Source: Escherichia coli
GTDB taxonomy: Bacteria > Pseudomonadota > Gammaproteobacteria > Enterobacterales > Enterobacteriaceae
Reading direction: 5' to 3' (one strand)
NCBI RefSeq assembly: GCF_003790525.1
Contig: NZ_CP033635.1
DNA length: 64,000 bases
The notes below the pieces were generated by a model. The model had not been told where the DNA came from. It was given only the letters and a program-made list of their open reading frames with translations, and did no database searches. The stretch's first letter is position 1; the number at the start of each line of letters is the position of its first letter. A program made the translations under genes and the position numbers. Shown here piece after piece: positions 28,257 to 29,012 of this stretch.

Positions 28257-28442
28257 AATCATCATTCATGTATCAGGAAGAGTTAAGGTTACAAGGGGGA
28301 CTCGATGGCGGTCAATATTTCACGACTAACGCCATTTTAAAGAAGCAGTGCGGTAGGTGGTTTCGAATGAGGGCTGGTGTTTTGGTACGTGGCACGCCAC
28401 TGCAATGTATTTATCCATCAGTACTTATTCAAAAGTACCTGG

Positions 28443-28469
28443 AAAAAATGCCCGCTATGCCAAGCGGGC
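28443..28469 (-). terminator. Orphan intrinsic-terminator-like hairpin in noncoding AT-rich DNA
   Basis: On the - strand: GCCCGC-ttggcata-GCGGGC followed by ATTTTTTCC. No annotated - strand gene upstream of it. Confidence 0.4.
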
Positions 28470-29012
28470 AAATTGCTTACATGTGGAATTAAGTAATTAA
28501 CGATAAAGCCAGAGTATTATCATTTATCATGCCTTTTCATTTAATCAGGTTAATTACTCAAATCACTGAACTATTCTCTGTTCGCTCACTGATGATAAGT
28601 GAAGTGTCACAACCACGATTTGTATGTGGACCAATGCCGTAGAGTAAGGATGAAATGTCTCTGCCACGCCTTAAACATCTACTACTGACCAGACCACCCG
28701 TCGCAGGCAGATGAGTCTTATGAGCGTTACAGGAGTCTGGCTTTGCTCATTAATTAACGCTATTTAGATATAAATTTCTAACACTCGAAAAACGAATTCC
28801 ACTAATAAATCATAACGGTTGGTTTTTATCATACAGCGAAATAACTTTTTGTTTATTAAATTTAACATTCTTGTGCTAATTTAATTAAAAAGTCCATGCG
28901 TAGCAAGTGAAACAGTTAATGTCAGCAATTGTCTCAAATGAGCGGTTTTTTATAGTGACAAACAGTAATAACGTTAAACATAGCCATGTAGACATTAACT
29001 GAGGAATAGACA

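Follow-up and report, generated by a model that had tools for sequence, protein, structure and literature searches.

Amongst the enterobacterial small RNAs (sRNAs) that act in trans, MicA, RybB and RyhB carry Rho-independent terminators. Two further arrangements are relevant herein, namely the type I toxin–antitoxin loci txpA/RatA and par of pAD1, in which the two genes converge and overlap at their 3′ ends, and the tRNA-linked sRNA 3′ETS-leuZ, with 3′ external-transcribed-spacer (3′ETS) RNAs being cut from the tRNA precursor and belonging to the tRNA strand. The locus considered here lies within a 64,000 nt stretch of Escherichia coli SMS-3-5 DNA (the window, which matches NC_010498.1 at 100 % identity), and comprises the 756 bp between the tRNA gene ileY and the pseudogene ypjCB. 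An intrinsic terminator on the minus strand of this interval closes a 70 nt core that is almost unchanged between E. coli and Escherichia albertii, and a promoter-like element precedes it on the same strand. With moderate confidence, we favour an unannotated minus-strand unit that would produce an RNA of 68–77 nt, ending at the intrinsic terminator with a Rho-dependent region as backup, and that would be silent or weakly expressed in laboratory K-12. The features concerned are as follows.

28257–29012: unannotated interval of 756 bp, between ileY and ypjCB
28441..28470, minus strand: intrinsic terminator, with stem TGCCCGCT/AGCGGGCA (28470..28449), loop TGGCAT and tail TTTTTTCC (28448..28441)
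28443..28510, minus strand: predicted sRNA of ~68 nt (GGCUUUAUCGUUAAUUACUUAAUUCCACAUGUAAGCAAUUUGCCCGCUUGGCAUAGCGGGCAUUUUUU), with a putative 5′ end
28516..28553, minus strand: promoter-like region, on the terminator strand
28554..28578: upstream part of the conserved block, which includes GTAATTAAC(C)
28341..28440, minus strand: region downstream of the terminator, with a C-rich stretch and a mapped Rho coordinate
28367..28492, plus strand: open reading frame (ORF) of 41 codons, ORF41 (MRAGVLVRGTPLQCIYPSVLIQKYLEKMPAMPSGQIAYMWN), with a Shine–Dalgarno (SD)-like GGTGG 7 nt upstream

On the minus strand, positions 28469..28441 read GCCCGC-TTGGCATA-GCGGGC-ATTTTTTCC. Adding the flanking T–A pair gives a stem of 8 bp, six of which are G–C pairs, with a 6 nt loop (TGCCCGCT/TGGCAT/AGCGGGCA) followed by TTTTTT. 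The folding energy of this hairpin is −15.9 kcal/mol (z = −2.8 against shuffled sequences). A strict terminator scan, requiring a perfect stem of at least 7 bp, at least five G–C pairs and at least five T residues in the next 7 nt, returned 17 distinct loci in the window, compared with a mean of 0.4 in random 64 kb sequences from a first-order Markov model, and the chance expectation for such a motif within 756 bp is ~0.005. Because the plus-strand sequence following the hairpin is AAATTGCTT, which is not a U-tract, the hairpin is a one-way, minus-strand terminator. By sequence and structure it is a genuine-looking, canonical intrinsic terminator. The first-pass annotation, made from the sequence of the window, had described it as such; the structure and strand given there hold, although the end placed at 28443 falls 2 nt short of the tail (28441). 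Its description of the setting as some 750 bp of AT-rich, noncoding DNA 3′ of ileY is borne out by the 756 bp of the interval, its GC content of 37.8 % (against 49.4 % for the whole window) and the complete lack of RefSeq gene annotation within it; the K-12 counterpart (2785012–2785761) has neither a gene nor a noncoding RNA annotated. The term orphan, which was also applied to the hairpin, is equally apt, as the minus strand is devoid of annotated genes from the hairpin upstream to the ssrA terminator near 35970.

The interval was found once per genome, always in the chromosome, in about 3100 of 5426 complete E. coli genomes (single copy checked in 3089). No genome carrying it has an RNA annotated there, and a few annotate a hypothetical protein overlapping the tRNA. 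Phage collections gave no match to the interval, and the 'plasmid' matches were confined to chromosome-sized records. A repeated or mobile element, such as a repetitive extragenic palindrome, a miniature inverted-repeat transposable element or the end of an insertion sequence (IS), is ruled out by the single copy and by this lack of phage or true-plasmid presence. Variation within E. coli was assessed across 52 distinct haplotypes, derived from 8 complete-genome copies and ~65 metagenome contigs, and is given below as variable sites per 100 nt.

28257–28355: spacer between ileY and the block, 21
28356–28440: post-terminator region, 9 (partly biased by the search pattern)
28441–28510: core, consisting of the hairpin and predicted RNA, 2.9 (2 sites in 70 nt)
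28511–28578: promoter side, 12
Remainder of the interval: 25
5′ end of ypjCB: 45, the most variable DNA of the region

The E. albertii copy was reached by a protein-level search with the plus-strand ORF, which led to a 41-residue hypothetical protein and then to its contigs. A block homologous to 28356–28578 again follows ileY in this species, and the comparison with SMS-3-5 is as follows.

ileY: 96 % identity
28257..28355: spacer separating the block from the tRNA, poorly conserved, ~42 % identity, with large indels
28356–28440: 83.5 % identity, with no indels
28441–28510: 69 of 70 bases identical, the sole change being in the hairpin loop
28513–28578: 64 % identity

On these alignments, the hairpin, together with the adjoining 45 nt on its right, is as conserved across E. 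coli and E. albertii as the tRNA itself. As would be expected of an sRNA gene, the presumptive transcribed region is thus more conserved than its flanks, both between species (1 difference in 70, against flanks of 42–64 % identity) and within E. coli (2.9 against 21–25 variable sites per 100 nt).

Homology with E. albertii stops near 28578, beyond which the right flank in that species is ykgO, ykgM and ykgR (ykgO and ykgM being identified by Pfam L36/L31 matches) and not ypjCB. These different right flanks indicate that the right edge of the block (~28578) is a synteny break and that the block travels with ileY. In E. albertii TW07627 (contig 6215–7434), ~128 bp of unmatched DNA joins the block to the ykgL-ykgO-ykgM-ykgR region; in E. 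coli the ykgL-ykgO-ykgM region sits at a distant locus. A displaced ykgM-ykgO terminator was considered as the origin of the hairpin and rejected, as ykgO in E. coli is already followed by ykgL DNA of its own, and the junction in E. albertii falls beyond the limits of the block. When a degenerate 26-mer taken from the block was compared with GTDB species representatives, it recovered an E. coli contaminant contig in a metagenome-assembled genome (MAG) and two random matches, a result which shows only that this exact 26-mer is absent elsewhere, since diverged copies escape it, as the E. albertii copy did. One 2.8 kb contig, DEQI01000374.1, binned as 'Planococcaceae bacterium UBA3370', has 92 % identity to the E. 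coli ileY–ypjCB region, and is almost certainly E. coli contamination of the MAG bin.

On the terminator strand, a promoter-like element is present ~60 nt upstream of the hairpin in all three lineages examined. Its −10-like hexamer, GATAAT (28521..28516), does not vary in either E. coli or E. albertii. The five bases past it vary between the species (ACTCT versus GTTAC), and identity then resumes at GGCTTTATCG (28510 onward, with GG at 28510/09), unbroken through the terminator. The GGCTTTATCG at 28510 coincides with the +1 predicted from GATAAT, and it is this succession of an invariant −10, five varying nucleotides and identity restored at the predicted start that points to the layout of a minus-strand gene. 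The −35 candidates for GATAAT are weak, being TTAAAT or ATTAAA (28545..28539) in E. coli and ATTACA in E. albertii. A second possible −10, which lies at 28531..28526 and has TTAACC as its −35 (28553..28548), reads CATGAT in SMS-3-5 and TATAAT in K-12-type alleles, two common polymorphisms effecting the conversion. In total, five common E. coli polymorphisms occur at 28528–28538, all within the promoter spacer between invariant hexamers, and without indels. A promoter scanner scored TTAACC-16-TATAAT at 10/12 on the terminator strand of K-12, and ATTACA-18-GATAAT at 9/12 in E. albertii, directly upstream of a perfect terminator. A further minus-strand promoter-like site, TAAACA-16-TATGAT, is found upstream at 28855..28828. 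The RNA predicted from this arrangement folds into an A/U-rich, weakly structured 5′ part followed by the terminator; in K-12-type alleles it may start ~9 nt further upstream, giving a length of ~77 nt.

The promoter-like region is bracketed by a 10 bp inverted repeat, AGTAATTAAC, at 28492–28501 and 28549–28558, of which 9 of 10 bp are kept in E. albertii. The minus-strand TCGTTAATT (28495–28503) fits the high-affinity H-NS motif, tCG(t/a)T(a/t)AATT, and these sequences could be candidate sites for a regulator or for H-NS nucleation. Selection of bound fragments (SELEX) with RpoD holoenzyme placed a site in the ileY–ypjC spacer, for which a promoter-like sequence is listed and which is flagged as H-NS bound (Shimada et al. 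2014, PMC3946193). Judging from the identical string, that listed sequence would be the plus-strand reading of the same promoter DNA, TTATCA-18-TTTAAT (28517..28545, plus strand), and binding of this kind in vitro gives no orientation. For RpoS holoenzyme, a peak is reported ~250 bp further right in the spacer (PMC5493296).

With regard to expression, there is weak minus-strand transcription in K-12, and it is stopped by Rho before ileY. DirectRNA-seq identified a bicyclomycin (BCM)-sensitive, 'orphan' Rho-termination region on the terminator strand, with a best-scoring coordinate of 2785647(+) and read counts in 800 nt windows of 55 upstream and 19 downstream when untreated, and of 114 and 154 with BCM (PMC7815308). 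This coordinate maps to ~28371 in the window, ~70 nt past the hairpin, where the minus strand at 28380..28341 is C-rich and G-poor (C:G = 18:4), as it likewise is in E. albertii. We interpret 28341..28440 as a backup Rho-dependent termination region that protects ileY, and a C-rich stretch for Rho loading would be one reason for the moderate conservation of 28356–28440. A second Rho-termination region has been mapped on the tRNA strand, at K-12 2785734 (minus), which is window position 28284 and 28 nt past ileY (Adams et al. 2021, PMC7815308). Its reads number 154 upstream and 30 downstream untreated, and 308 and 218 with BCM (PMC7815308). The tRNA gene therefore seems to rely on Rho and not on an intrinsic terminator; only a weak hairpin follows it (ATGGCG...CGCCAT then TTTT, at 28305–28339).

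Reports on AT-rich, horizontally acquired DNA include, amongst the points they make, pervasive or antisense transcription suppressed by Rho and H-NS, and bidirectional promoters (bioRxiv 10.1101/2020.01.31.928960; PMC7815308). The interval resembles such DNA in its H-NS-flagged spacer, weak transcripts and BCM-sensitive termination, and its AT-rich stretch can be read as a promoter both ways, as TTATCA-18-TTTAAT on the plus strand and TTAAAT-17-GATAAT on the minus strand. It differs in that neither a tRNA-like degree of conservation between species nor a canonical intrinsic terminator is expected of spurious transcription. An insulating terminator with no RNA of its own must nevertheless be weighed here, in which the hairpin and Rho region would stop spurious minus-strand transcription arising in AT-rich, H-NS-bound DNA, including that divergent from or antisense to ypjCB, and so spare the tRNA gene collision or antisense reading. 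The low-level, BCM-sensitive transcription of K-12 suits such a role, as do the H-NS flag with the RpoD and RpoS holoenzyme peaks, the additional promoter-like site at 28855..28828, the tandem placement of intrinsic terminator and C-rich stretch, and the tolerance, in 66 % of genomes, of a mismatched hairpin for which Rho can take over. An insulator needs only a hairpin and a U-tract, however, and leaves unexplained both the conserved 45 nt upstream and the invariant −10 held at a fixed distance with a varying discriminator. Moreover, the right-hand DNA of E. albertii is entirely different, so the source of the transcription to be insulated would differ too. We consider insulation alone unlikely.

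Under the minus-strand RNA reading that we favour, a sigma-70-type promoter at ~28553–28516, set in H-NS-bound, AT-rich DNA, would be weak in the SMS-3-5 version and gain strength in K-12-type alleles. Transcription would start near 28510 and end at the U-tract, at ~28443, to give a noncoding RNA of ~68 nt (~77 nt in K-12-type alleles) that we presume to be discrete and stable. Transcripts reading past the hairpin would meet the C-rich stretch and be stopped by Rho ~70 nt on, before an antisense run into ileY, and the protection of ileY from convergent transcription would then be a by-product. The RNA itself would most likely act by base-pairing, either in trans on a target or in cis, on plus-strand read-through from ileY, with which its complementarity would be perfect.

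Such an RNA would have much in common with MicA, RybB and RyhB, being a free-standing intergenic unit of ~70 nt with a G–C-rich terminal hairpin and six uracils, an A/U-rich stretch (AAGCAAUUU) just before that hairpin, and a body and −10 that are conserved, and a promoter spacer that is less so, in close relatives only. In contrast to these sRNAs, it has no Rfam family and is a prediction from sequence, and conservation covers its entire body and not just a short seed. It also differs from them in that two-thirds of strains have a destabilised stem, and in that the unit appears silent or very weak in laboratory K-12. The original proposal that the hairpin might end an unannotated sRNA has thus gained substance from the 45 near-invariant nucleotides upstream, from a same-strand promoter-like element in three lineages and from weak transcription in K-12, but no direct transcript was found.

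A number of observations weigh against the favoured reading. The covariance-model comparison suggested in the first-pass annotation came back with no family other than the tRNA, an Rfam cmscan of 27000–30500 at E ≤ 1 returning only this and two chance matches elsewhere. In SMS-3-5 the promoter scanner, with its threshold of 9/12, finds nothing on the minus strand within ~100 nt upstream of the hairpin, and by inspection the promoter scores 8/12. A duplex-energy scan of the predicted RNA against the 141 translation-initiation regions of the window gave nothing beyond shuffled controls, and hence no target. In ~43 % of E. coli genomes the unit is missing, together with the whole ileY locus, and matches there are restricted to tRNA sequence. 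K-12 Term-seq in three growth conditions shows no 3′ end at the hairpin (around 2785575(+); Adams et al. 2021, PMC7815308), nor do the TERMITe supplements, in either coordinate version, and the Cappable-seq and SMRT-Cappable-seq supplements list no transcription start site there, again in either version; all of these supplements are possibly incomplete. A full-text literature search for the predicted RNA sequence found no paper that contains it. The case for a transcript would be poor if a 3′ end and an upstream minus-strand promoter were both lacking; the former is indeed missing from the Term-seq data, but a promoter-like element is present on the minus strand. Since K-12 carries a mismatched hairpin allele and barely transcribes the locus, the missing Term-seq end is not a clean refutation, and the mismatch may explain both this lack and the reliance on Rho.

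The hairpin alleles themselves add to the points against. Of the ~3080 complete E. coli genomes typed, 1033 (34 %) have the perfect stem and 2027 (66 %) a C→T change at 28453, with C→T at 28465 as a rare allele that was sampled once. Either change creates a C·A mismatch in the minus-strand stem, at a cost of ~6 kcal/mol, and a G·U wobble in a plus-strand RNA. No compensatory change in the stem was seen among the E. coli alleles and E. albertii, which also has the perfect hairpin, and covariation in the hairpin is nil, its analysis being uninformative because there is almost no variation. Two mismatch events give p = 0.25 under neutrality, and are too few for a test. The mismatch alleles nonetheless make selection on the minus-strand stem harder to argue.

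That the majority allele is imperfect also suits an evolutionary relic, the terminator of a lost or rearranged minus-strand gene with no present function. The setting would favour such an outcome, as the locus is a hotspot of rearrangement and integration (islands at 28211, IS1 insertions and differing right flanks), and it is surrounded by pseudogenes (ypjCB, pinH and, in many strains, ygaQ). Against this stands the strong purifying selection that persists at the core, which differs at 1 of 70 positions from E. albertii and shows no variable site in 70 nt among the 27 haplotypes with the mismatch allele, compared with 55 in 435 nt of adjacent intergenic DNA. As the core is still invariant across these 27 haplotypes, the mismatch lineages are not decaying, and we regard a relic as improbable.

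One isolated report touches the same stem. In an evolution experiment on gallium resistance, a G→A polymorphism at K-12 2,785,563, within the ypjC/ileY intergenic region, reached 19 % in one population (PMC6928379). This position corresponds to window 28455, a terminator-stem base that pairs with 28464, and the hit is probably a coincidence.

A different use of the block is suggested by its coding potential. The idea that a small-protein transcript might run towards the hairpin on the minus strand did not survive, as no ORF is conserved on that strand and the sole conserved ORF, ORF41, is on the plus strand. The minus-strand candidate, a 30-codon ORF at 28418..28326, was discarded as its start is lost in O157 and E. 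albertii. The block might instead be a plus-strand small-protein gene, expressed through ileY read-through or from a promoter of its own, with the hairpin as an mRNA feature or incidental. ORF41 keeps its length of 41 codons, its start and its stop in E. albertii, where the SD-like motif also precedes it, and the left edge of the block coincides with this motif, 7 nt before the ATG. In one E. coli genome a stop is present, but only upstream of the ATG. Within E. coli, five of its seven variable sites are synonymous and two are non-synonymous, and the hairpin-region changes at 28453, 28462 and 28465 all fall at third-codon positions, with G·U pairs in place of mismatches on the plus strand.

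Several results nevertheless weigh against this. Between E. coli and E. albertii, codons 1–25 have a pN/pS of 0.71, with 9 of 25 residues replaced; in codons 26–41, which are overlapped by the conserved RNA core, pN is 0 and pS is also low (0.13). Synonymous sites, and a further 18 nt after the stop codon, are conserved too, which a protein by itself cannot account for. Rare alleles with a frameshift or a stop occur, and there is no plus-strand terminator. In an exhaustive HMMER search, E. coli and E. albertii were the sole species with ORF41 homologues; a Pfam search returned no family, and ORF41 is missing from the K-12 ribosome-profiling small-ORF supplement and from the O157 intergenic small-gene supplements searched. 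An apparent similarity to P0026, a repeat protein of 1674 residues (E = 2.8 × 10−9), was dismissed as an artefact of a score summed over repeats; its Pfam matches are spread over five unrelated families, and in none of them is any single stretch significant by itself. A small-protein gene as the explanation of the block is, on balance, quite unlikely, and ORF41 may instead exist alongside the antisense RNA, the two forming a convergent pair. A longer plus-strand ORF of 109 codons, overlapping the tRNA and annotated as hypothetical in a few genomes, was rejected for its want of codon-phase bias (6/10/6) and for a stop in one genome.

The geometry of such a pair recalls txpA/RatA and par of pAD1, in that the predicted RNA is antisense to the 3′ end of ORF41 (its last 16 codons and stop, with the hairpin inside the ORF) and both lie within one 220 bp block. 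Unlike the proteins of type I toxin–antitoxin systems, ORF41 is not hydrophobic, is under little or no constraint as a protein over codons 1–25, and has neither a promoter nor a terminator of its own. Its GRAVY value is 0.19 for the E. coli peptide and −0.36 for that of E. albertii, and its best 15-residue Kyte–Doolittle window reaches 0.87, against 2.6–3.2 for the IbsC and TisB sequences that served as references. This lack of hydrophobicity makes a type I toxin unlikely. A more elaborate version, for which we see very little likelihood, is a two-gene, tRNA-linked antisense module in which ORF41 would be translated only from ileY read-through that escapes Rho, under the control of the ~70 nt antisense RNA; if real, it would be a tRNA-coupled switch between small protein and antisense RNA of a kind not described in E. 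coli.

The tRNA itself invites comparison with 3′ETS-leuZ, which the block resembles in its physical linkage to, and co-inheritance with, a tRNA gene. It departs from that model in the polarity of its terminator, opposite to ileY, and in the 185 nt that separate the element from the tRNA. A 3′ETS RNA was excluded on the grounds of this polarity and because the tRNA-adjacent spacer is the least conserved part. An integrase attachment-site role for the core was rejected on general grounds, and island junctions lie inside the tRNA, at 28211, rather than in the core.

If the favoured reading is correct, the locus would contribute one more small regulatory RNA to the best-studied bacterium, and one overlooked by virtue of H-NS-silenced accessory DNA, a weakened terminator allele in the laboratory strain and a lack of relatives outside Escherichia. 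Its two common wild alleles (34 % versus 66 %), which are one stem base pair apart, would constitute a natural test of how stable a hairpin must be when it stands before a Rho site, and the locus could be informative about the protection of tRNA genes against convergent transcription. Should the element prove to be only an insulator or a relic, the finding would be an ordinary one.

The wider surroundings of the interval in the window are as follows.

25372–27624, minus strand: ygaQ-like alpha-amylase gene, intact
28181..28256, plus strand: ileY, tRNA-Ile(CAU), with a CAT anticodon (RefSeq annotation), to which the conserved block is always linked
From ~28211: 3′ half of ileY as island integration site, with island junctions at 28210/28211
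From 29013, plus strand: ypjCB pseudogene (RefSeq)
After ypjCB: pinH remnant
31258–35955, plus strand: ypjA
36116–36478, minus strand: ssrA

ileY is an active integration site. In E. coli O22:H8 strain 154, and likewise in one strain of E. albertii, islands encoding tyrosine integrases are inserted at ~28211 and leave a partial tRNA copy beside the conserved block; in several IMG/VR 'viral' contigs, homology starts exactly at 28210/28211. In E. coli 14EC007, two IS1 copies replace ileY and most of the interval and truncate gabT, with 66 bp of the interval (window 28661–28726) left between them. The ygaQ-like gene is intact (750 aa) in SMS-3-5 and a pseudogene in K-12, O157 and others, and its E. 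albertii homologue has ~67 % DNA identity, against 93 % for the neighbouring glaH. On the other side, ypjCB has an internal stop in the window (29013–30451); K-12 has it in two parts, ypjC and ypjB, and O157 and some other strains keep it intact (449 aa). Further right, ypjA directly adjoins ssrA in SMS-3-5 (window 35956–36478); in K-12 the CP4-57 prophage separates the two, and it would accordingly be absent from this position in SMS-3-5.

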